DNA of 64,000 nt from a virus: IMG/VR virus record IMGVR_UViG_3300026521_000343, positions 5,265 through 69,264 of that record. One strand, written 5' to 3'. The translations under genes were made by a program, and so were the position numbers. The notes under the pieces are model-generated. The model saw only the letters and a list, made by a program, of their open reading frames with translations. It searched no databases and was not told the DNA's origin. Below, piece by piece: positions 3,730 through 60,047 of the stretch; position 1 is the first letter of the stretch, and every line of letters starts with the position of its first letter.

Positions 3730-3981
3730 GTGGCAAATATGGTTGAGATAGTTGAAAGAATGAAAGATGTACTTGCAGTGAAGTATGAAGATAAGGTTCT
3801 TGATAAGAATATTGCGTATGAACTTGGCATTGCACCAGATAACTTGGCGGCAAAGAAGTCACGTAACTTAGTTCCATACGATCACTTAACATCGTTTTGT
3901 GTTTCGTACAAAATAAGTACCGATTGGCTATTTTTCGGAATAGGTGCAAAAGAGAGAGATTATGCCAAAAAAAATATGTAA
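3730..3981 (+). CDS. Phage CI-type HTH-domain protein
   Basis: IAYELGIAPDNLA..RNLVPY..ISTDWLFFG. Confidence 0.65.
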   Translation: MANMVEIVERMKDVLAVKYEDKVLDKNIAYELGIAPDNLAAKKSRNLVPYDHLTSFCVSYKISTDWLFFGIGAKERDYAKKNM

Positions 3982-4345
3982 CCAAGTGAATTGCAATACT
4001 CTCATCCCTATGAGTGAGAGATATTGTCCTAAACATAAGAGAGATGTGACAGCTAAGAAGAATAGTGATTATAATAAGTTCAAGCGAAATAAATCACATC
4101 AATCTTTTTATAATTCACACGAGTGGAAGAAAGCAAGAACTATAGCAATGCAAAGAACTGGTGGACTTTGTGAAGATTGTATGGAGTTTGATTTGATTGT
4201 TAAAGCTGATGTTGTGGATCATATCATTCCAATATCTAAAGACTTTTCAAAACGATTAGACCAAACAAATCTGCGTCCACTTTGCCATTCTCACCACAAC
4301 AAAAAAACAGCTCAAGAAAACTCAAATAAGGGAGGGGGTCTATGA
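3962..4345 (+). CDS. HNH endonuclease (packaging-associated, HK97 gp74-like)
   Basis: CEDC..VVDHIIP..NLRPLCHSHHNKKT; directly upstream of terS. Confidence 0.9.
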   Translation: MPKKICNQVNCNTLIPMSERYCPKHKRDVTAKKNSDYNKFKRNKSHQSFYNSHEWKKARTIAMQRTGGLCEDCMEFDLIVKADVVDHIIPISKDFSKRLDQTNLRPLCHSHHNKKTAQENSNKGGGL

Positions 4346-4494: not shown

Positions 4495-5046
4495 ATGGCA
4501 AAGGGTATTGACTGGGAATTTATTAGATCTGAATATGAAGAGACAACAAAGTCAATTCGCCTGATGGCTAAAGAAAATGATGTTACTCATGGTGCGATTC
4601 AAAGGAGAATCAAGAAAGAGGAGTGGACCAGGAGTGCAGCAGTAGAAGTGATCAGTGATAAAGCTCTTGTAGGTTCTAATCCACTCCTGGATAAAGTCGC
4701 CATCAGAAAAACAAAAGAGATCATTGATGCTTTGGGTGATAATTACTCACCACTTGATGAGCCACTTGTAGCTGCTTTTGCTCTGAACTATTCGAAGTGG
4801 ATTACTACGCAGAAGATCATTAAAGATGAGGGTTCCATAGCAGTCAGCTCAAAAGGGAGCCTTTATATATCTCCGTATGAAAATCTTGCGAAGATGTATG
4901 AGAACACTTTTATTAAAATTGCCGGCCAGCTTGGTCTGTCAATCTCTTCACGCAAAAGAATTGGAATTTCTACAAAGTCCGACACGGAGGAGGCTTCATT
5001 ATTTGATATAACAAAGGAGCTGATGGAGTGTGATGTAGATGTCTGA
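4495..5046 (+). CDS. terS: Terminase small subunit (P27 family)
   Basis: QLGLSISSRKRI C-terminal motif; precedes terL. Confidence 0.85.
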   Translation: MAKGIDWEFIRSEYEETTKSIRLMAKENDVTHGAIQRRIKKEEWTRSAAVEVISDKALVGSNPLLDKVAIRKTKEIIDALGDNYSPLDEPLVAAFALNYSKWITTQKIIKDEGSIAVSSKGSLYISPYENLAKMYENTFIKIAGQLGLSISSRKRIGISTKSDTEEASLFDITKELMECDVDV

Positions 5047-6724
5047 AACAAAAGAGGATTATCGTATACCATACTATGAAAAAACGTTTGAAAGGCATAG
5101 AAACGATTTAATTGCGGTTGAATCTGGTTTTCGTGATGATATTAGATTTAACAAGAAACTTGGACTAGCGTATATTGTTATCATTGAGAAACTTTGTCAC
5201 TTTGAAGGTGAGCTTGCGGGTGAGCCTATTGTACTAGAAGAGTGGCAAAAAAAAGCCTTAGTTATTTGTTTTGGATGGCAAAAAAAGAGACTCGACAAAG
5301 ATGGAAAACCTTTACTAAAGGACGGAAAACCACAGTGGATACGCAGGTTTAACACTGCATTTTGGTTTATAGCTCGTAAAAACGGTAAGAGTATTTTAGC
5401 TTCTGGTGTTGCTGTTTCTGAGGCAGTGCTTAGTGCTGAGTATGGAAACCAAATCGTTTCTTTTGCAACTAAAAAGGATCAGGCAAAGATTGTATGGAAA
5501 GGGTGTGAGAGGATGGTCAGGCTCAATAAAGAGCTCTCAAAAAAGTCTCTTATAGCTTACTCAACTATAGAGATAAAACCAACACAAACGACCATCAAAC
5601 CGCTTGGGCGTGATTCTCAAACAGAGGATGGACTCAGCATTGGTCTTGGAATAGGGGATGAGATACATGCACATAGTGACCGTGGTATGATAGAAGTTGT
5701 AGAGTCGTCTCAAGGCGCAAGGCTCCAGCCTATGATGTTCTACATAACAACAGCAGGATTTAATACTGCATCAGTAGGGTACCAGGAGTATGAGTATGCA
5801 AAAGATGTTCTTGATGGAATCATAGAAGATGACAGCTACTTCGCATTTGTCTGTGAGCTAGATAAGGATGATGATCCGTTTGATGAGAGTGTATGGTACA
5901 AGGCAAATCCAAACCTTGGTGTTTCAAAAAGCTATGACTATATGCGTAAGATGGCAAAACAGGCAAAAGAGCGTACGGAAACACTCAACAACTTCCTCGT
6001 AAAAGATTTAAACAGATGGGTGACAGCTGAAGAGCATTTTATAGTGCTTGATGATTGGAATGCATGTGGCGTTGATAAGTATGATGTAAATGATGCCGTA
6101 TCTGTATTTCTTGGTGTTGACTTGTCTCGCAGTGATGATTTTACGGCAGTTGCAGTAACGTATATGTTTAAAAATGGAACTTTCTACACTACGCAGCACT
6201 ATTACATACCAGCTGACAATGTAAGAGAACGTGCACGCGAGCTAAGAGTTCCTTTGGAAAGTTGGATATTGCAAGAGCATATTACTGCAACACCAGGTGC
6301 AACGATAGACCTTAAATATATAGCAAAAGATATCATTGAAAAAATAAATGTGCAAAATATAGATGAGGTGTGTTATGATCCTTACAGAGCTGCTACGCTG
6401 ATATCTGAGATAGAAAAAGCGAGCGGTTTTGAAAACTGTGTTCAAATACGCCAGGGATACTTAACTATAAGTGAACCAACTTTTAACTTCCGTGATTACA
6501 TAAGAAGTAAAAAGCTACTGCACGATAAAAATCCAGTTACAAGATGGATGGTTTCAAATATGACTGTAATTCCTGATGCTGCAGGAAATGTAAAACCAGA
6601 CAAAACAAAGCCAAACAGGAAAATAGATGGATGTGCTGCAATTATAAACACACTCGCCCGTGCCATTGCGTATGAACCGCAAGAGGAGAGTGTGTATGAG
6701 AGTAGGGGTGTTAGGAGTGTGTGA
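5039..6724 (+). CDS. terL: Terminase large subunit (HK97-like)
   Basis: IARKNGKS Walker A, GDEIH Walker B, ITTAG, GVDLS, KIDGCAA. Confidence 0.95.
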   Translation: MSETKEDYRIPYYEKTFERHRNDLIAVESGFRDDIRFNKKLGLAYIVIIEKLCHFEGELAGEPIVLEEWQKKALVICFGWQKKRLDKDGKPLLKDGKPQWIRRFNTAFWFIARKNGKSILASGVAVSEAVLSAEYGNQIVSFATKKDQAKIVWKGCERMVRLNKELSKKSLIAYSTIEIKPTQTTIKPLGRDSQTEDGLSIGLGIGDEIHAHSDRGMIEVVESSQGARLQPMMFYITTAGFNTASVGYQEYEYAKDVLDGIIEDDSYFAFVCELDKDDDPFDESVWYKANPNLGVSKSYDYMRKMAKQAKERTETLNNFLVKDLNRWVTAEEHFIVLDDWNACGVDKYDVNDAVSVFLGVDLSRSDDFTAVAVTYMFKNGTFYTTQHYYIPADNVRERARELRVPLESWILQEHITATPGATIDLKYIAKDIIEKINVQNIDEVCYDPYRAATLISEIEKASGFENCVQIRQGYLTISEPTFNFRDYIRSKKLLHDKNPVTRWMVSNMTVIPDAAGNVKPDKTKPNRKIDGCAAIINTLARAIAYEPQEESVYESRGVRSV

Positions 6725-6727
6725 TAG

Positions 6728-6756
6728 TTGAAAGTGTTACTTTATTTCGCTATAAT
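6728..6756 (+). promoter_or_regulatory. Sigma70-type promoter
   Basis: TTGAAA 6728-6733, 17 nt, TATAAT 6751-6756. Confidence 0.7.
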
Positions 6757-6880
6757 TCCATAGCAAAAAGAAAGTGTGTTGCAAAAGGTAACTTATTTAT
6801 TAAATAGTTTACTTAATTGTGGCACTAAGTTTGCTATTTGTAAGAGTATGTTAATATTTTTACAATTCAAAGGAGAGAAA

Positions 6881-6910
6881 ATGTTAAAAAGAGAATGGGG
6901 AAATATATAG
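6881..6910 (+). CDS. Putative 9-aa micropeptide MLKREWGNI
   Basis: AAGGAG SD just upstream of ATG 6881; downstream of a promoter and a long hairpin. Confidence 0.4.
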   Translation: MLKREWGNI

Positions 6911-6911
6911 T

Positions 6912-7685
6912 CTAACATCTATTGTTAGCTATAAAATTTCTGATTTGTAGGTACATATTTTCGTTTCCATCGTGTTTTTTTATCACATGGTTAATATACA
7001 CTTCAAAAAGTCTAAATGCATCTCTTATAGGTGAACACATTAGGCTTTTTATCACATCTTCATCTAAAATATCATTGTTTACACCAGCTGCTAAGTATTC
7101 ATATTCATTTAATAATCCATATATACTGTCTTTAACTGCAAGACCATCTATTTCATCAATAAAGTGAATTATATGTTCATCTTTTTGTTCTCGTGGTAAA
7201 TTTTTATAATCATCTTTTGAATGTTGCCCATGAAATACAAAACTTCCATCTTCCATAAATATTCCCATTGCATTATGAATCTCAGCTACTGAATATGGTG
7301 TTGCTTTGTTCTTTTTTCTCTCTCTGTAGTTTAAAATAGGATTGATAACTTCTATATGCTTTGTGATATTGTCAAGAACTGTATGTGCTTGCGTCATTGC
7401 AAGTTGCTTTTTATTCCATTCATTATTTTTTTCAAATTGTTTTCTATTGAGTCTAAATTGATTGGCAGCTATTCCTAAAGATACAACAAGCATAAGGGAA
7501 CCAAGAGCTTTTATGATGTTTATAATTTTATCATCAAAAGAAAAGAATGAAGCAATAGATAAAATAGCAATCATCACACCAAACAAAATCCATAATATGC
7601 TCTGTTCAGCTTTTCCACACCATTTGTCTTTTTTAAAACAACTAAACTTAAACTTCATTATAGATTTGAGTTTTTTAAGTTTCAC
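6912..7685 (-). CDS. Membrane-anchored DUF4760-like moron protein
   Basis: Two N-terminal TM segments; LLNEYEYLAAGVNNDILDEDVIK motif recalled as DUF4760. Confidence 0.65.
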   Translation of the reverse strand: MKLKKLKSIMKFKFSCFKKDKWCGKAEQSILWILFGVMIAILSIASFFSFDDKIINIIKALGSLMLVVSLGIAANQFRLNRKQFEKNNEWNKKQLAMTQAHTVLDNITKHIEVINPILNYRERKKNKATPYSVAEIHNAMGIFMEDGSFVFHGQHSKDDYKNLPREQKDEHIIHFIDEIDGLAVKDSIYGLLNEYEYLAAGVNNDILDEDVIKSLMCSPIRDAFRLFEVYINHVIKKHDGNENMYLQIRNFIANNRC

Positions 7686-7687
7686 TC

Positions 7688-8128
7688 CTACATCTCCTCT
7701 TTATTATGATTTTGTTTTTCTTTCTTGGTTTTAGGAGTCTTTTTCTCAAGCAATTGAAACTCTATCTTTGCACCTTTTTCACTTGCTCCTGCATATCTTT
7801 GTCTTATTTTGTAGTTTTTATATGTATCATTAGGTGCCAGTATGGATGCAATATCAGCCGGTATATATCCAAGTAAAATTCTTTTTTGAGATTTAAAAAA
7901 GAAAAAACTTGTCAAAGTTACATTTCCAACTACCATTATCGCATTTTTATCATGTTCATTGCCTGGTTCTGCTTGTAGTTCTATTTGATGATTTAAACCA
8001 TTTACAAACGCTAAGCAGTTGTCTATTCTGTAGTTTGTTCCTGCTGTTGTTATGGTATAAGCGATTTTATACCCTTTTGGTATAGATTCATCAAATTTTA
8101 TATCTTTATATCCCATATTCACATCCAT
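7688..8128 (-). CDS. HIRAN domain protein
   Basis: AGTNYR..LQAEPGNEHDKNAIMV..LGYIP; extended -10 TGGTACAAT at 8144-8152 on the minus strand. Confidence 0.85.
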   Translation of the reverse strand: MDVNMGYKDIKFDESIPKGYKIAYTITTAGTNYRIDNCLAFVNGLNHQIELQAEPGNEHDKNAIMVVGNVTLTSFFFFKSQKRILLGYIPADIASILAPNDTYKNYKIRQRYAGASEKGAKIEFQLLEKKTPKTKKEKQNHNKEEM

Positions 8129-8253
8129 TATATTAATAACATAATTGTACCAAACTTCTTTTTGTTTAGCTGTGTTTTATTATTTTTTTACAACAACATT
8201 GCGTATTCGCAAGCTTTTTTAAAATCTTTCTTTTTTTGATGTAGATTTCTTTT

Positions 8254-8463
8254 ATGGAAATTTTTAGATACATCATAGCACTTTACATATTTTTTGCACT
8301 TATCATCGGAGCATTTGCTTATGCTGCTGCACTTTCTTTTCCTGCTGTGGCAAACTATGCTTATTCCGTTGCACTTATTGTTCATGCTGTTGTGATGTTT
8401 GTTCTTTTTGTGCTTGAGCTTAAAAGCACTCCGACAAAAGAGCAACAAAGTGAGTCTGCATGA
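8254..8463 (+). CDS. Small two-TM membrane protein preceding portal
   Basis: Hydrophobic 69 aa; ATGA overlap with portal. Confidence 0.6.
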   Translation: MEIFRYIIALYIFFALIIGAFAYAAALSFPAVANYAYSVALIVHAVVMFVLFVLELKSTPTKEQQSESA

Positions 8464-9692
8464 GTCTTATTTCACGCATGATGCAAAGAGATGCAGTTTC
8501 GACTTTATCAAAACCTACAGAGTGGCTTAGCTCTATGTTTGGAGGATTGTCATCTTCTGGTGTCCATGTAACAGCAGAGAGATCACTCCAACACACATCT
8601 GTCTATTCATGCGTAAATATTCTGAGCGAAACGCTCTCAACACTTCCTCTGTTTCTCTACAAAGAGGAGACAAAAAACAAAAAAAACATTAAACAAAAAG
8701 CAAAAACACACCCACTTTACACGCTTTTACTTGATGAGCCAAATGAAGACATGACATCAGTCTCTTACATCCAGCTAGTTATGCTGGAACTTACACTCAG
8801 AGGGAACCATTATTCGCAGATTGTCCGTAACAAATCCGGAAAAGTAACTGCTATTTATCCACTTAAGAACGAACTTATGCAGATAGTTCGTCTTGAGAGC
8901 GGGAAACTTGCATATATTTACAGACATACGACACTTGGTGAAGTTCCTCTTGATGCTAATGAGGTACTTCATTTCAAAGGTATGACACTTGATGGCATTA
9001 TAGGTATTTCTCCTATTACATACAACAGACATACTATCGGTGCTTCCATCGCTATGGAAGAGTTTGGCTCTACACTTTTTAAAAACGGTGCTACGCCATC
9101 GGGTGTCGTAAGTGGTGAGGGTGTAAAGTCTATGAGCGACACCGCATTTGAGCGTTTTAAAAAGAGTTTTAGAGAAGCATACACTGGAATTATGAATGCA
9201 GGAAAGCCACTTATACTTGAGGATGGATTCAAATTTACTCCTATTACTATCTCAAATAGAGATGGCCAGTACATAGAGTCCCGTAAGTTCACCAAAGCAG
9301 AGATAGCATCTATCTTTAGAGTACCACTTCACATGATAAATGAGCTCGACAAAGCAACTTTCTCAAATATTGAACACCAATCTATCAAGTTTGTAACAGA
9401 TGCCATTTACCCATGGGCTGTTCGTATAGAAAAAGAACTTAAAAAGAAACTTCTAACAAAAGAGGAGAAGAGAAGCTTTTATATGAAGTTCTCTCTTGCA
9501 GCACTCCTACGCGGTGATGTTGGCAGCAGATATGCAGCATATGAGTCCGCCATCACAAAAGGGTGCTGGATGAGCAGAAATGAAGTGCGAGAACTTGAAG
9601 ATTTGAATCCTATAGACGGACTTGATGAAATGATAGTACCACTAAATTTTGGAAAGGAAGGTGACGCTAATGGCGAAAAAACAACGAAGTAA
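8460..9692 (+). CDS. Portal protein (HK97 family)
   Basis: VYSCVNILSETLSTLP, EVLHFK, IASIFRVP, SNIEHQ, NEVRELEDL. Confidence 0.95.
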   Translation: MSLISRMMQRDAVSTLSKPTEWLSSMFGGLSSSGVHVTAERSLQHTSVYSCVNILSETLSTLPLFLYKEETKNKKNIKQKAKTHPLYTLLLDEPNEDMTSVSYIQLVMLELTLRGNHYSQIVRNKSGKVTAIYPLKNELMQIVRLESGKLAYIYRHTTLGEVPLDANEVLHFKGMTLDGIIGISPITYNRHTIGASIAMEEFGSTLFKNGATPSGVVSGEGVKSMSDTAFERFKKSFREAYTGIMNAGKPLILEDGFKFTPITISNRDGQYIESRKFTKAEIASIFRVPLHMINELDKATFSNIEHQSIKFVTDAIYPWAVRIEKELKKKLLTKEEKRSFYMKFSLAALLRGDVGSRYAAYESAITKGCWMSRNEVRELEDLNPIDGLDEMIVPLNFGKEGDANGEKTTK

Positions 9693-39611: not shown

Positions 39612-40073
39612 ATGAAATATAAGTGCATAGAGTGTGGAAAAACAGTAGATGCAAAAGACATCAATGAAATTATGAAAAAGAAAAAAATGTGTGAAAACTG
39701 CTTAGAAGAGAGCAAAAAAATATATAAGTGTAAATGCTACATTTGTGGCAGTAATTTTAATGCAAAAAGAGAAAATAGGAAAACTTGCTCGGATGAGTGT
39801 TATCATATTCATTTAAGCAATATTCAAAAAAAACACTACGAAGAGAAAGTAAAAGGTGTAAAGTTTAAAAAACAATGTAGTTACTGCGGATGCGAATTTG
39901 AGGGTTCGCTTAGTACTAGATATTGTAGTGAAAAATGCAGAGAAAATAATCTATTTAAAAAACACTTAAAAGAAGCAAATGAAGCGATAAGAATAGATAA
40001 AGTTAAAGTGTATGGAGCAAATGACGGAAAAATGAAATCATTTATCAATGAAAGGTCGAGAAAAAATATATGA
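39612..40073 (+). CDS. Multi zinc-finger protein
   Basis: CIEC, CENC, CYIC..TCSDEC, CSYC..YCSEKC. Confidence 0.65.
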   Translation: MKYKCIECGKTVDAKDINEIMKKKKMCENCLEESKKIYKCKCYICGSNFNAKRENRKTCSDECYHIHLSNIQKKHYEEKVKGVKFKKQCSYCGCEFEGSLSTRYCSEKCRENNLFKKHLKEANEAIRIDKVKVYGANDGKMKSFINERSRKNI

Positions 40074-41434
40074 AATTGAACCCCGCACTAAAAGACTTCT
40101 GGAAAACACAAAAGCAAATCAAAGTTTTATACGGTGGGCGACTATCATCAAAGACAATGGATACAGCGGGGGTATTGCTTTTTTTAGGAGCAAAATACAC
40201 TATAAGAGTAGCTTGTCTTAGACGTTTTCAAAATAGGATACAAGATAGCGTATATTCAACATTTAAAAGACTTATTAAAAATGATGATAGACTAAAATCG
40301 CAGTATGATGTAACTAAAAATTCAATAATTTCAAAAAGTGGAAGTGAATTTATATTCATGGGTATTCAGAGGAATATCGAAGACATAAAAGGACTTGACG
40401 ACATAACCTTCACTTGGATAGAAGAAGCTGAGAATATCACAGAAGAACAATGGAACTTAATAAGACCGACAATATTAAGGGAAGATAATTCTACTTGTTT
40501 ACTTGTTTTTAATCCAAAATTTGCAACAGACTATATTTATCAAGAATTTATAGCAAAGAACCACGACAATGTTTTAGTTAGGAAAATTAACTATGATGAA
40601 AACCCTTTTTTATCAAATAGTGCAAAACTTTTAATTTCTTCTGATAAAAAATCAATGGATAATGAAGACTTTGATGCCATGTATTTAGGGAAGCCAAAAG
40701 ACAACGATGACGAGTCTATTATTAAGAGAAAATGGGTTGACGCTGCGATAGATTTTCACTTAAAATATTTTATAGAGCCGCAAGGTAAAAAATACATAGG
40801 TTTTGATGTCGCAGATAGTGGTAACGACAAGAATGCAACAGTAGAACGACACGCACATATAATTACTAATATCGAAGAGTGGCAAGGTAAAGAGGACGAG
40901 CTACAGAAATCTTTTACTAGAGTGTATAATAGAGCAGTAGAAATAAATGCGATTATAAATTATGACAGCATAGGTGTTGGAGCTGGCGCAGGTAGTAAGT
41001 TTCAAGAACTTAACGGAGATTATGGAGAAGTAGAGTATCATAAATTCAATGCAGGCGGAAAAGTTCTTGATCCAGATAGAGAGTATAAAATTAATATCAA
41101 AAATATTGAAGCATTTTCAAACTTGAAAGCTCAACAGTGGCAGATAGTAGCGGATAGATTTAGAAATACTTATGAGATGATGCAAGGGATAAAAGAGTAT
41201 AATGCATATGAAGTAATAAGTATAAGTTCAACGTGCAATAATGTAGATGGGTTAATAACAGAACTTTCAACACCTAGAAAAGACTATAATGCAAACGGTC
41301 AGTTAAAAGTTGAGAGTAAAAAAGATTTAGCAAAACGTGGTATAAAGTCGCCAAATATCGCAGATGCTTTTATAATGAGTTTCTATCAAGGCGAAAAACA
41401 AGCACGCACATTCTCAACAAGGATAAACATATGA
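40070..41434 (+). CDS. terL: Terminase large subunit (PBSX-like)
   Basis: LYGGRLSSKT, WIEEAE, FNP, GFDVAD, SPNIADA. Confidence 0.92.
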   Translation: MKLNPALKDFWKTQKQIKVLYGGRLSSKTMDTAGVLLFLGAKYTIRVACLRRFQNRIQDSVYSTFKRLIKNDDRLKSQYDVTKNSIISKSGSEFIFMGIQRNIEDIKGLDDITFTWIEEAENITEEQWNLIRPTILREDNSTCLLVFNPKFATDYIYQEFIAKNHDNVLVRKINYDENPFLSNSAKLLISSDKKSMDNEDFDAMYLGKPKDNDDESIIKRKWVDAAIDFHLKYFIEPQGKKYIGFDVADSGNDKNATVERHAHIITNIEEWQGKEDELQKSFTRVYNRAVEINAIINYDSIGVGAGAGSKFQELNGDYGEVEYHKFNAGGKVLDPDREYKINIKNIEAFSNLKAQQWQIVADRFRNTYEMMQGIKEYNAYEVISISSTCNNVDGLITELSTPRKDYNANGQLKVESKKDLAKRGIKSPNIADAFIMSFYQGEKQARTFSTRINI

Positions 41435-43292: not shown

Positions 43293-44564
43293 CTACTTTA
43301 TCCCATCTTCAATTTCACTTTTAATAATATCCATGTCTTCAATATCAACACTCGATAGATCATTAGACACAATTTGCTGTAATTTCAACTGTTCATACTT
43401 AGGTAAATCATAACCTAACGCTTTGATATCTGATAGTATTCCAACTTCTTTTTCTACATCAACGATGTTAAAGCTTTTTGGATAATTTATAACCACGTCA
43501 TTGTTTATACCTAAATATAAACACGCAATATTAAAACAATTTCTTTCGAAATCTTCAAGACGCATTGCAAAGTTGGATAATGATCCATTAAGACCTTGAA
43601 ATTTAATATCTAGTGCAATTCCGCTTTCTTGCTGATTGTTTGTTAAAATGTCATATGCAATTTTATTAATATCATTTGTGATGTTTTCTATCTCATTCTG
43701 ATAAATATTTGCGCTGTTATTGTCTGGTGCAATAAAGTCAGGTGCTTTTAAATCTTTTCCGTAAACCAAAGCATTATCAGTCGATACTTTTATTTCACTT
43801 TCACTATTTCCAGTCGCATTGATTGTAAGAAGTGCGAATGTTTGCCCTCTCAATATCTCATCAAGTTCGCTTTTCAAGTTATAGTGGCGTTTCTGCAGAT
43901 AAGCGATTTGATTAAACTCTCCACTATCTGGAAATATACCGTTTTCGCCAAAGCTTACAACAGGGCATACACCTAAATTATGATCACTACCATCTACAAC
44001 CTTGCCATCTTCAATCACTTTCCACGAAGTGCGGTCATAATATCTAATTACTTCTTTTTTGTCATCCTCTTCAAAAGTTGAATTGTCAATTACTGACTTA
44101 TAAGAAATATACTCAAACTTGCCAAATTCATCTAACTTGTATTTATCAACACTTGATATGTCTATTTTAGTGAAATACGGAACTGCTCTTTTTTCAATTT
44201 GTGTTTTTAAATCTGTAGGAATATCTTTAGGCATATCAATCAGCACAATCCCACTTCCTAAAGCTTTTGACTCTTTTGCAAAACTTGACATAAATACATC
44301 AATAGAATTTCCCGAATTGTCCGCATCATTGAAAATCATCTTAATCAGATTGCTTGATGACATTCTAAATGGAGCTGTCTTGAATAAATACCCGTTATAT
44401 CTATTTATCTTAGATGCAAACATATTAGTGTAATAAGCTATCTTTTGACGCTCCTTGAATTTTTCATCGCTTTCACGAGGGAATTTATCAATGTATCCAC
44501 CATTTAAGAAGCCTCCGCTACCGTCATACGCCTCTTTTATAAACTTGTAATCTTTAATATCCAT
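43293..44564 (-). CDS. Portal protein (SPP1-like)
   Basis: FPRESDEKFKERQKIAYYTN, DADNSG, HNLGVCPVV, ESGIAL. Confidence 0.8.
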   Translation of the reverse strand: MDIKDYKFIKEAYDGSGGFLNGGYIDKFPRESDEKFKERQKIAYYTNMFASKINRYNGYLFKTAPFRMSSSNLIKMIFNDADNSGNSIDVFMSSFAKESKALGSGIVLIDMPKDIPTDLKTQIEKRAVPYFTKIDISSVDKYKLDEFGKFEYISYKSVIDNSTFEEDDKKEVIRYYDRTSWKVIEDGKVVDGSDHNLGVCPVVSFGENGIFPDSGEFNQIAYLQKRHYNLKSELDEILRGQTFALLTINATGNSESEIKVSTDNALVYGKDLKAPDFIAPDNNSANIYQNEIENITNDINKIAYDILTNNQQESGIALDIKFQGLNGSLSNFAMRLEDFERNCFNIACLYLGINNDVVINYPKSFNIVDVEKEVGILSDIKALGYDLPKYEQLKLQQIVSNDLSSVDIEDMDIIKSEIEDGIK

Positions 44565-45015
44565 TTGTTACCCTTTGAAATATAGTATCTAACTTTTTAA
44601 ATGTATCTTTTACGCCTTTTTCTAGGAAGTTGTCTCCTTTGTACCCAGGATGATTTACTCCTTTTGTGAATACAAACTGATTTACGCTTGAAAATCTAAG
44701 CGACTTTTTATTTTTTGATGCAATGGGGTGCTTTTTAGTGCCGAATAAAACAAATAATGCGTAGTTTGTTGGTCTTCCTTTCACATCCACAATCATACCG
44801 TGATCTTCTATAAATACCTCACCATGCAATGATTTTTTATTCACACTTAAAGATATATTATCTTCCATATTTCCCGTTACGTGATGCGGTTTAGCTCTTT
44901 TTTTTACATTATCATACGCATCGTGAGTTACTTCTGATATTAAGTTTTTGGATAAGTTTTTGTCAATATTTCCTAAAGTCTTGTTTATGTCTTCAAGACC
45001 ATAAACCTTAATCAT
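44554..45015 (-). CDS. HK97 gp10-like neck protein
   Basis: TGNMEDNI, YALFVLFGTKKH, VNHPGYKG..FL. Confidence 0.75.
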   Translation of the reverse strand: MIKVYGLEDINKTLGNIDKNLSKNLISEVTHDAYDNVKKRAKPHHVTGNMEDNISLSVNKKSLHGEVFIEDHGMIVDVKGRPTNYALFVLFGTKKHPIASKNKKSLRFSSVNQFVFTKGVNHPGYKGDNFLEKGVKDTFKKLDTIFQRVTNGY

Positions 45016-45395
45016 TATTGAATATCCGTGATGTTGAAGTTAGCTATTGCACTTTTTAAATTTGTAAGTTTATCACCATCAGGTGTATTTGATTCAAAAA
45101 AGCAAGTACCATAATTTACTTTATATTGAATTGCATCAATAATACTTTTTTCCATTTCGTACATTTTTTTATACATAAGTTCTAAATCTTTGTTTTTAAT
45201 ATCAAACCCATACACAACACTGAAAGATAAGTCTTTAAATGTTGTTCCTTTTGCAGTATCCATCCCAGATACAATACGGATAAAAGGGCAGTCTTTAGAT
45301 CCTATCCCTACTTCAAGACCTATTTTAACACTTTTAGCATCTGGAATTGTCTCAAGCTTTGATTTAATATCAAGCAATACGTCATAAATTTCCAC
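45015..45395 (-). CDS. Putative tail terminator
   Basis: Size and position; CPFIRIV. Confidence 0.5.
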   Translation of the reverse strand: MEIYDVLLDIKSKLETIPDAKSVKIGLEVGIGSKDCPFIRIVSGMDTAKGTTFKDLSFSVVYGFDIKNKDLELMYKKMYEMEKSIIDAIQYKVNYGTCFFESNTPDGDKLTNLKSAIANFNITDIQ

Positions 45396-45396
45396 G

Positions 45397-45696
45397 TTAT
45401 CCCCTTGCTATTTGAACTGAAGATATAGAAATGTTTGACGAGTTATTCAATGCTAAAGAAATATACTCATCATATTCTTTTTTGTAAGCCTTGTATCTTT
45501 CTGGCATACCCTCGTTTTCAAGCTGATTTAGTGATAATTTTATATACACTTTAGTTTTGACAAGTTTTTCAATGTAAAAAGTATCGCTGATATTCAGCTT
45601 ACCTACCTCGTCAATAGCTTTTGATTCTGCGTTGTTCAACTCTATTTCGTCAATGCTATCAACAATGAATCCATCTTCATATGTATAATTTGCCAT
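45397..45696 (-). CDS. Putative head-tail adaptor
   Basis: Size; first gene of the neck block. Confidence 0.45.
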   Translation of the reverse strand: MANYTYEDGFIVDSIDEIELNNAESKAIDEVGKLNISDTFYIEKLVKTKVYIKLSLNQLENEGMPERYKAYKKEYDEYISLALNNSSNISISSVQIARG

Positions 45697-58790: not shown

Positions 58791-58987
58791 TGTACCGTTT
58801 TTGTACCGTTTTTATGCAATAAAATTTCAATGTATGTAATGATTTTAAGATGAATGATGAAGAAAGAACCTATAGTTCAGGAAGTTTGCTTGAAATAATA
58901 AGTATTGTTTATTTCTCGCTTAATTTTTATTTATGCGTATTATAGGGAGTTTTTTTTAACAGTGTACCGTTTTTGTACCGTTTTTAT
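58791..58987. other. Putative attP with paired arm-type integrase sites
   Basis: tgtaccgtttttgtaccgtttttat at 58791-58815 and 58963-58987, each made of tandem 11-mers, at the 3' end of int. Confidence 0.7.
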
Positions 58988-60047
58988 ATCTTTTTTCTAA
59001 AAACTCTATTTTCATTTTTTCCTTGCGTGGTAAAAAATGCGCATATATTTCGAGCGTGATTTTAACATTCTCATGCCCAAGTGTTGCTGAAACCCACATA
59101 GGATCTATGCCATTATTTAGCATCATACTTGCAAAAGTATGCCTGGCGCTATGCAGAGGCCTGTGTTCTAAGTTTAAGCTCTTTAGTAGGCTTGTAAACT
59201 TTGACAACCATGTAGAACCTTGTGTATAATGCGACTGTTTTGCATTTAGAAAAACAAAAGTGTTTTTCATCCCTGTTAAAAGCCTTTGGCTCTTAAAAAA
59301 ATGCTTAGCTTGCTCAAGCATCTCGATATCTCTGTCGCTCGAGAGAGTCTTTGGTGTTCCAATCGTTCCAGCTGATACTGTTTTGTTTATGGTTATAGTA
59401 TCAGTTTTGAAATCAACATCATCCCACTTCAGAGCCAATAGTTCACCAATTCTCATACCTGTAAAGAATAATATTCCAAGAAAATTCTTGAAGTCACCAC
59501 TAACATTATCTAAGATAGTGTCCATCTCATCAAGTGTGAAAACTTTTACAGACTGTTTTTTAGTGCTCTTCTTATATGTTGGAGTGCTAACCATCTTCAC
59601 TGGGTTAACATCGATCTCGCCTCTTAGAATTGCATCTTGAAACACTTCTGATAATAGATATCTTGATTGCCCTATTGTCGCTTTTCCGATAATACCTTTA
59701 CTCTGTATATAGTCATGGTACTTTTTGATATCAATAGGTTTTATCTGAGCAACTGTTTTATCTTCAAAATATGGCTTAATGTAATTTTTGAAAGTAACTC
59801 TATAATTTCTTATAGTGCTTTCTTTTTTTGTACTACATTGTAAGTTTATAAAATTTTGTACTAAATCAGTAATCAACCGAGAATCGTCACTCACTAAATT
59901 CAGATCATCGTCAAAGAGTCCTTTGTAGAACTTGTTTTGAATGATGTTTTTATTTACGGAGTTGTATTTCATCTTAGAAGATTTAAACTTATCGCCTATG
60001 CCGAAGTATAAAATACCATTGCGATTTTTAAAGCGTAGCTTTCTCAT
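58956..60047 (-). CDS. int: Tyrosine integrase
   Basis: TGMRIGELLALKW, PKT, HSARHTFAS, LGH..ITLEIY. Confidence 0.95.
   Translation of the reverse strand: MRKLRFKNRNGILYFGIGDKFKSSKMKYNSVNKNIIQNKFYKGLFDDDLNLVSDDSRLITDLVQNFINLQCSTKKESTIRNYRVTFKNYIKPYFEDKTVAQIKPIDIKKYHDYIQSKGIIGKATIGQSRYLLSEVFQDAILRGEIDVNPVKMVSTPTYKKSTKKQSVKVFTLDEMDTILDNVSGDFKNFLGILFFTGMRIGELLALKWDDVDFKTDTITINKTVSAGTIGTPKTLSSDRDIEMLEQAKHFFKSQRLLTGMKNTFVFLNAKQSHYTQGSTWLSKFTSLLKSLNLEHRPLHSARHTFASMMLNNGIDPMWVSATLGHENVKITLEIYAHFLPRKEKMKIEFLEKRYKNGTKTVHC

Follow-up and report, generated by a model that had tools for sequence, protein, structure and literature searches.

What belongs together in a phage cargo cassette that sets two genes on one strand against a 9-codon open reading frame (ORF) on the other, and what might such a cassette do? 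The question arose from a 64,000-nucleotide stretch of viral DNA, hereafter the window, which covers bases 5265-69264 of the 69,264-base IMG/VR virus record IMGVR_UViG_3300026521_000343. Between the genes for the large terminase subunit (TerL) and the portal protein lie, on the minus strand, a gene for a stand-alone HIRAN protein and a gene for a DUF4760-like protein with two transmembrane (TM) segments, and, on the plus strand, a promoter, a hairpin, a Shine-Dalgarno (SD) sequence and the 9-codon ORF, which stops 1 nt short of the DUF4760-like stop. The original prediction, made from the letters of the window, had listed all of these features, and each of them was found in place. It had read them as an undescribed three-part system made of a DNA-end sensor, a membrane effector and an RNA or peptide regulator. 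Comparison with related loci points to a smaller conserved core of the cassette, a two-gene unit that consists of the DUF4760 membrane protein and an ORF of 9-15 codons, here called the micro-ORF.

The DUF4760-like gene is located on the minus strand at 6912..7685 and encodes 257 residues, with a match to PF15956 of 50.3 bits against a cut-off of 25 (E 3.7e-13). The micro-ORF is located on the plus strand at 6881..6910 (ATG...TAG), encodes MLKREWGNI in nine codons, and is preceded by the SD sequence AAGGAG (6870..6875, plus strand) 5 nt before its ATG. A single base, 6911, separates its stop from the stop of the DUF4760-like gene (6912-6914). Scans of viral, genome and metagenome contigs yielded ten further distinct loci, with protein identities to the window of 89% (L005), 73% (L002), 50% (L004), 44% (L008), 40% (L009), 38% (L011), 37% (L010), 34% (L013 and L014) and 33% (L012). 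In L011 the gene is cut at the contig end, and this locus was not scored; the scored set was comprised of the window and L002, L004, L005, L008, L009, L010, L012, L013 and L014. Since L013 and L014 are near-identical proviruses, about nine of these ten loci are independent. An SD-preceded ORF of 9-15 codons was present at the 3' end of the gene in all loci with downstream DNA (10/10, at 33-89% protein identity), and the SD was of the GGAG or AGGA type in every case (10/10). The neighbourhood check that had been proposed for the micro-ORF was thus borne out, as the micro-ORF was tied to the DUF4760-like gene wherever the check could be made.

The peptide MLKREWGNI is encoded in the window, L002 and L005. 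The corresponding product is MCKIISQEWPDI in L004 and MLVYISQEWPDI in L008 and L012, and in all six of these loci the micro-ORF converges with the gene. In the remaining loci, where the two are co-directional, the products are MKLESKEWPDL in L009, MTKNINTTINGWPDL in L010 and MLKLNFIFMGWPDA in L013 and L014; the open frame in L009 permits at most 11 residues. The N-terminal part of the peptide is variable, and the ending across loci is [E/G]-W-[P/G]-[D/N]-[I/L/A], so that the family is defined by W-[PG]-[DN]-[ILA]-stop. As a control, the regular expression W[PG][DN][ILAV]-stop was run in six frames over the window and the ten loci (113,882 bp). It matched at exactly the ten expected places and at none elsewhere in the 113,882 bp x 6 frames, and in 100 shuffles the same motif had a mean of 0.18 matches and a maximum of 2.

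The codons behind the motif varied synonymously: P was encoded by CCA or CCT, D by GAT or GAC, N by AAT or AAC, and I by ATA or ATT, and the stop was TAG or TAA. The micro-ORF of L002 has the same 30 nt as that of the window, and the micro-ORF of L005 differs by two synonymous changes only. SD and ORF together were 89% identical to the window in L005 and 91% in L002, compared with 83% and 76% for the gene and 73% and 64% for the leader between promoter and SD. These patterns indicate a constraint at the amino-acid level on the last four or five residues.

The orientation of the micro-ORF is not constant. Six loci (window, L002, L004, L005, L008, L012) have it convergent with the gene, with stops 0-11 nt apart, and four (L009, L010, L013, L014) have it co-directional, 44-73 nt downstream of the gene. 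In the latter arrangement a hairpin and T-run come after it; the terminator scan reported this element in L013, and in L009 and L010, which the scan passed over, it was recognised by eye. The synonymous codon variation and the flip of orientation argue for a peptide and not for an antisense RNA; because the motif is kept through the inversion, neither an antisense RNA nor a leader peptide can explain it. As for the RNA or peptide regulator put forward in the original prediction, the micro-ORF is conserved and not noise, and an antisense RNA is excluded as the shared principle by the co-directional loci (4/10). A peptide product, or at least the translation of these residues, can account for the retention of the motif. 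The sequences thus point to a conserved family of genes for 9-15-residue peptides that accompanies DUF4760 membrane proteins of a rare kind. Neither this association nor any micro-ORF partner for the DUF4760 family was found described in the literature, with subscription journals and supplements outside the search.

The types of peptide follow the clades of the protein, with EWGNI at 73-89% identity, QEWPDI at 33-50% and WPD[LA] at 34-40%. L012 has two tandem micro-ORFs at 511-587 on its minus strand, whose stop and start overlap in TAATG; both converge with the gene, and in the upstream copy, MKKIIQEERGDI, the conserved W is replaced by R, a pattern suggestive of duplication followed by divergence. 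A scan with a further subset of the family gave no loci beyond those known. The locus L004 was the only match in 185,579 species genomes, on a 1.5-kb contig (G001 C317) of a 2.7-Mb 'Gracilibacteria' metagenome-assembled genome. Among 401 genomes of the same phylum two matched (2/401), namely this one and one weak match; with one weak match among 400 further genomes, the contig is probably mis-binned phage DNA, and the bin is probably not the host.

The partner of the micro-ORF is predicted to be anchored in the membrane. Its PF15956 match spans residues 166-250 and profile positions 51-136 of 141, and an Atlas feature search also gave DUF4760 clusters (score 0.90). By Kyte-Doolittle hydropathy it has hydrophobic segments at about 26-52 and 53-75; the N-terminal tail holds 10 K/R in residues 1-27, and the segment after the second TM segment is basic too. 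The AlphaFold2 (AF2) model, with a predicted local distance difference test (pLDDT) score of 85.9, shows a long helical hairpin and, after it, a domain that is mostly helical. From hydropathy, charge and the AF2 model, and because of the positive-inside rule, both termini, and thus the DUF4760 domain, are predicted to be cytoplasmic. The domain has about 170 residues, with invariant His, Glu and Tyr; invariant residues of the protein family include WN, EIHN, FH, EYEY and YIxH.

The families PF15956 (DUF4760) and phrog_2284 comprise uncharacterised membrane-anchored proteins of bacteria and phages, to which the C-terminal part of the window protein matches at twice the cut-off. No function is known for DUF4760, and the window protein belongs to a rare subfamily. 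Its relatives amounted to 18 clusters among 5.8 billion proteins, and a profile search of 1.84 billion proteins gave 353 representatives at E<=1e-3, 102 at 1e-10 and 25 at 1e-30. All family members scanned (15/15) have DUF4760 as their sole domain. Neither the cassette nor the DUF4760-like protein had a match in phage and plasmid collections (blastn, tblastn). Foldseek against BFVD found no match at E<=0.001, a sequence profile search of the PDB gave nothing below E 0.5, and NCBIfam gave just one sub-threshold match, in the TM region. In VIA-align, matches to the full model were dominated by generic helical hairpins. The C-terminal domain (model pLDDT 71.7) matched the EP domain of PAD4 (8zf0_C) with Z 8.2 and a root-mean-square deviation of 4.2 over 129 residues, and 7xey_B with Z 8.0, the next match having Z 7.2; Z values under about 8-13 are common for helical models.

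A sister subfamily, which makes up 13 of 26 aligned sequences (P0028-P0048), continues after the domain with a variable linker and then a C-terminal tail, [DE][YFW]x[VT]PF, and its domain carries an RxDxRHG motif. The subfamily associated with the micro-ORF is without this tail. The comparison suggests that a short aromatic or acidic peptide could be supplied either in cis, as the tail, or in trans. The micro-peptide might mimic the invariant juxtamembrane xEWN motif of the protein, or the C-terminal tail of the sister subfamily.

The micro-ORF of the window is preceded by signals of predicted strong expression. A sigma-70-type promoter, TTGAAA-17-TATAAT, lies at 6728..6756 on the plus strand, matches 11/12 consensus positions, and is the predicted driver of the micro-ORF transcript. 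It is the sole 11/12 site in 6400-8600; sites with at least 9/12 numbered 12 in this interval compared with 10.2 expected, which is not above chance. TATAAT occurs in the same register in 5/6 convergent loci (window, L005, L002, L008, L012), and L004 has TATGAT. The promoter is followed on the plus strand by a structured 5' leader RNA (6758..6869) with two hairpins, at 6760-6837 and 6838-6866. The first has an outer stem of AUAGCAAA (6760) and UUUGCUAU (6837) and an inner stem of GUGUUGCAA and UUGUGGCAC, and corresponds to the minimum free energy fold. At -30.3 kcal/mol the segment 6758-6884 folds with z -4.04, and 0/200 shuffles fold as well; for 6755-6912, z was -3.11 on the plus strand and -1.25 on the reverse strand.

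The leader is shared among the convergent loci only to a degree. The blocks TGGnA, AGyTTGCT and TGkTA are common to all six, and three of the six leaders are clearly more stable than their shuffles (z -4.0, -3.6 and -2.7), which the other three are not. RNAalifold on all six gave 5 pairs and 0 compensatory changes. A covariance model built on the window, L005 and L002 found L012 with 38.6 bits (E 9e-5), where CC-GG replaces UU/UC-GG pairs; the same model matched L004 weakly, at 28 bits and no better than the antisense match, and missed L008. The hairpins are therefore regarded as real in the clade of the window and as only partly supported as a feature of the family. Rfam had 0 matches at E<=1 on either strand of window 6000-9000, and no second copy of the leader was found in the window or the loci (nhmmer, blastn). 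A match to the leader-core pattern in viral contigs (L015) lies inside a coding region and was attributed to chance. We also considered a longer ORF across the leader, as frames of 44 residues in the window (6776-6910), 43 in L002 and 38 in L004 have similar N-termini. This was rejected: the frame ends after 11 codons in L005, whose partner protein is 89% identical, and in L002 it differs from the frame of the micro-ORF, so the leader is taken to be RNA. High-depth contigs of the vent runs X2 and X4 match 6728-6876, that is, promoter, leader and SD, at about 85% (22 differences in 149 bases); a different ORF follows the SD there, and the flanks are unrelated to the window. The expression cassette of promoter, leader and SD thus seems portable.

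The HIRAN protein fared differently from the micro-ORF. Its gene (7688..8128, minus strand) encodes 146 residues, or 142 if translation starts at 8116. Its PF08797 score is marginal (26.6 bits against a cut-off of 24.7, E 5.5e-6); the signature EPxNxxDxNAI is present in the translation as LQAEPGNEHDKNAIMVVG. Its stop is 2 nt from the GTG start of the DUF4760-like gene, with GAGGAG just upstream of that start, which makes an operon plausible; the two genes are predicted to be translationally coupled in the window. A promoter of its own, which the original prediction had assigned to this operon, was not recovered, as no site of at least 9/12 lies upstream of 8128; by eye there is only an extended -10-like element, TGGTACAAT, at 8152-8144. 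A search of 5.8 billion proteins gave one relative of the HIRAN protein, P0020, which is 60% identical and starts at an MGY corresponding to 8116; the context of P0020 was not found in viral contigs.

Co-occurrence of HIRAN and DUF4760 had been set beforehand as the test of the three-part architecture. No relative of the HIRAN protein was detected in the ten other loci, where tblastn gave only noise (E > 1), and none of 13 neighbouring ORFs matched PF08797 in Pfam (0/13). The ORFs scanned include an S24 repressor, a Rha-type regulator, a WYL/TerB-like protein and small helix-turn-helix (HTH) proteins, and the neighbours of the DUF4760-like gene and micro-ORF differ widely among loci. Given its absence from the ten loci, the HIRAN protein appears to be a local addition, an accessory of the window lineage outside the conserved unit; the three-part idea is reasonable for this one phage and does not describe a general architecture. 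A complex prediction for the HIRAN and DUF4760-like proteins returned no answer (score 0.00). In PADLOC-DB 2.0 the HIRAN protein had a weak match to the candidate PDC-M03B only (best E 6.5e-4, 17.3 bits), the DUF4760-like protein matched 0 families at E<=0.1, and with the lack of Rfam matches the claim that the system is undescribed held up. According to one report, HIRAN domains attached to HipA-like toxin-antitoxin (TA) modules (HipN antitoxin, HipL kinase) are proposed sensors of phage DNA ends, and there, as here, HIRAN adjoins or is fused to a putative toxin (PMC8262856). In contrast to the HipA modules, the HIRAN protein of the window stands alone, with neither a kinase nor a HipS-like domain, and does not travel with the DUF4760-like gene.

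The position of the cassette in the phage agrees with cargo DNA. TerL is encoded at 5039-6724 on the plus strand (PF20441, 1.5e-52; PF03354, 1.7e-28) and the portal protein at 8460-9692 on the same strand (PF04860, 4.5e-104), and the cassette occupies the 1.7-kb gap between the two. TerL is at most about 36% identical to that of any deposited phage, and matching DNA occurs in hydrothermal-vent metagenome runs. The gene order of this phage is CII-like, DnaB-like, HNH, TerS, TerL, portal, protease, major head and tape measure (PHROGs, Pfam). In a contig of run X3 (record 19, depth 87), which derives from a related phage, the match covers 6519-6725 and resumes at 8215, skipping 1489 bases, in place of which other DNA may stand in that contig. 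The right side of this 6725->8215 joint falls just past a terminator-like hairpin (8199-8212), TTGCGTATTCGCAA with a T-run (8199..8221, plus strand; terminator scan), at which the boundary of the cassette was therefore placed. The extra DNA between TerL and the portal operon (6726..8214) is thus a moron, as the original prediction had proposed, and belongs to a novel temperate phage of hydrothermal-vent metagenome origin. The moron has putative signals of its own on the plus strand, namely the 11/12 site at 6728 and the hairpin at 8199, both consensus matches only, and its minus-strand genes have no site of at least 9/12.

The unit occupies comparable and other places elsewhere. In L002 and L013, which represent two other types of phage, the DUF4760-like gene and micro-ORF likewise lie between terminase and portal, in lambda-like packaging modules. 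The locus L005 follows a prophage (S24) repressor gene, a gene for a Rha-type regulator is found in the neighbourhood of L011, and L010 appears, from a reading of its translations only, to be chromosomal and beside chemoreceptor-like genes. In L013, 400-4800 is a cargo island of about 4.5 kb between terminase and gpW/portal, present in two lambda-like proviruses. It contains a gene for a WYL/TerB-like protein of 393 residues, an 88-residue ORF with a hydrophobic N-terminus (from its translation), small HTH genes, and the DUF4760-like gene with its micro-ORF.

Several further features of the window were recorded. An ORF of 69 residues (8254-8463, plus strand) has two hydrophobic segments, only weak family matches, and a stop that overlaps the portal start (ATGA); it lies to the right of the 8215 joint, and hence outside the moron. 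Positions 1-25200 and 25300-60100 hold two different phage genomes in tandem (PHROGs, Pfam), which could be tandem prophages or a chimeric assembly. The second phage carries single-stranded DNA-binding protein and Erf genes on the minus strand, followed by helicase, ThyX-like, HNH, TerL (40070-41434), major head, tape measure and integrase (58956-60047) genes. Its structural module includes an inverted block on the minus strand (43293-45696) with the portal gene (43293-44564), a neck or tail-completion gene and two small ORFs, flanked by plus-strand terminase and minor-head genes and by scaffold and major-head genes. In both phages a gene for an HNH endonuclease lies beside the terminase genes (3944-4345; 39612-40073), an association that is usual for cos-type packaging.

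How does the unit compare with known systems? In prophage TA and abortive-infection modules, as in this moron, a small gene of predicted strong expression abuts the 3' end of a gene for a membrane protein, and the pair in the window would be compatible with TA logic, in which the inhibitor is labile and the effector stable. Convergent genes that overlap at their 3' ends are known from the type I pairs bsrG/SR4 and txpA/RatA. Unlike in type I TA systems, the conserved element here is a hydrophilic peptide (its translation is predicted) that occurs in either orientation, and not an antisense RNA, and the putative effector in the window is a membrane protein of 257 residues, not a hydrophobic peptide of <60 residues. 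In the four of ten loci with a co-directional layout, antisense pairing is ruled out.

Tiny ORFs beside a receptor gene are also typical of the peptide-signalling cassettes arbitrium AimP/AimR, Rgg/SHP and PrgX/PrgQ, and for Rgg/SHP both convergent and co-directional layouts are known. The unit described here shares with them a very short ORF beside a presumed partner, conserved C-terminal residues, and the occurrence in temperate phages. It differs in having no signal sequence, pro-region, HTH or tetratricopeptide repeat (TPR) receptor, or nearby export or import genes; compared with RRNPP and arbitrium systems, the peptides have 9-15 residues with no hydrophobic signal segment, and the partner has no TPR or HTH domain in Pfam. 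A third group is formed by regulatory leader and arrest peptides such as TnaC and the Erm and Cat leaders, together with the lambda bar minigenes. The likeness lies in a very short ORF after a structured leader, with conserved Trp, Pro and Asp near the stop. In contrast to these peptides, there is no downstream gene to regulate, the micro-ORF follows the partner gene in 4/10 loci, and the last sense codon is variable (ATA, ATT, TTA, GCT).

We favour, tentatively and at somewhat less than even odds, a reading in which the peptide is a trans-acting antidote or ligand for the DUF4760 membrane protein and the pair a toxin-antidote, abortive-infection or exclusion device. The micro-peptide would be translated and, because it has no signal sequence, would stay in the cytoplasm, where it would meet the DUF4760 domain in trans and, in the likeliest case, serve as an antidote or off-switch with a short lifetime. 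Its abundance in the lysogen would be maintained by a promoter close to consensus, by a strong SD and by the structured leader, whose effect is probably stabilising. A collapse of host expression, or interference by a superinfecting phage, would lead to decay of the peptide and so set free the membrane protein, whose action could be membrane damage or exclusion; the pair would then behave as a toxin-antidote or abortive-infection module. In the window the HIRAN protein may contribute an input from DNA ends. A more doubtful proposition is that the pair represents a new class of two-gene phage cargo, in which a membrane-anchored DUF4760 effector has as its specific ligand or antidote an unprocessed cytoplasmic peptide of 9-15 residues that ends in W-[PG]-[DN]-[ILA].

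A number of observations weigh against the antidote reading. The toxicity of the 257-residue protein and its binding by the peptide are both predictions from sequence. We know of no precedent for a 9-residue antidote. That the peptide types track the protein clades would also result from shared ancestry alone, and the contexts inspected were those of 10 loci in a family with 353 representatives. The fold is uninformative, with no PDB match in Foldseek at E<=0.001, and the resemblance of the modelled domain to the PAD4 EP domain lies within the range of chance for helical domains. No PADLOC model exists for the DUF4760-like protein, and no RNA sequencing runs were listed among those matching the stretch. 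Finally, as the promoter and leader stand before a different ORF in the X2 and X4 contigs, the expression cassette is not exclusive to the micro-peptide.

Other explanations were weighed against the same data. The micro-ORF could be a sensor of translation in cis, with no function for the free peptide. Like the residues of an arrest peptide, W-P/G-D/N would slow termination, and pausing of the ribosome at the stop would determine whether the plus-strand transcript ends or continues, antisense, into the DUF4760-like and HIRAN genes, which would couple expression of the protein to the translation state of the cell. With stops 0-11 nt apart in the six convergent loci (6/10), transcripts should overlap; the plus strand of the moron is framed by the strong promoter at 6728 and the terminator-like hairpin at 8199-8221, L002 has a similar hairpin and T-run beyond the 5' end of its gene (by eye), the leader is structured, and the conserved residues directly at the stop recall TnaC and short drug-dependent leader peptides. 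However, 4/10 loci have the micro-ORF on the same strand as the gene, downstream of it and ahead of a terminator, which leaves nothing to regulate in cis and makes antisense impossible, and the motif is nevertheless kept; moreover, the scan gives no intrinsic terminator just after the micro-ORF of the window. We consider this explanation unlikely. Slightly less probable still is a peptide that serves as a signal or a substrate: the DUF4760 domain would either sense it, as in arbitrium or Rgg/SHP communication, or modify or cleave it as a small precursor, at the Trp or the C-terminus. A tiny ORF beside a presumed receptor or enzyme, with a conserved C-terminus and a variable N-terminal part, is what this would predict, and the two diverged tandem copies in L012, the invariant H, E, Y and N residues of the DUF4760 domain, and the temperate-phage setting near repressor or anti-repressor genes (S24 in L005, Rha in L011) are in line with it. 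Yet the whole product has 9-15 residues, with no signal peptide, processing site or transporter gene, the partner has no HTH or TPR receptor domain in Pfam, and no catalytic fold was recognised by Foldseek, PDB profile search or VIA-align.

The obligatory three-part system, in which HIRAN senses DNA 3' ends, DUF4760 is the membrane effector and an RNA or peptide regulates, draws on the predicted translational coupling in the window, on the HIRAN domains of HipA-like modules described above and on the weak PDC-M03B match. It is improbable in view of the ten loci that lack HIRAN (tblastn E > 1; 0/13 neighbouring ORFs), the single relative of the HIRAN protein, and the occurrence of the DUF4760-like gene and micro-ORF among quite different neighbours. 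Least credible of all is a micro-ORF without a coding function, which arose by chance or as a side effect of conservation in the DNA or RNA, for example of a terminator palindrome. In L004, L008 and L012 the last codons, CCAGATATTTAA, are palindromic with the bases that follow, and part of the nucleotide conservation in that clade could thus reflect a hairpin. The palindrome, however, is missing from the clade of the window and from L013. In both orientations the amino-acid motif is retained despite synonymous and conservative changes of codon, and its 10 occurrences are all at the expected place, with 0 elsewhere, compared with 0.18 expected.

The comparative case for the micro-ORF thus consists of synonymous changes, of association with one rare protein family at 33-89% identity, and of an inversion that it survived, in a module that is compact, at about 1.1 kb without HIRAN. 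If the pair does form such a class of cargo, no smaller proteinaceous antitoxin or intracellular peptide switch would be known. Control of the membrane protein by the peptide, if real, would be a first function for DUF4760, a family with 353 representative clusters in 1.84 billion proteins, and toxin-antidote and phage-exclusion systems would gain a regulator or antidote of a new, very small kind. Moron cassettes would then be shown to be able to carry micro-genes, and because gene callers miss ORFs of 9-15 codons, such partnerships go unseen.

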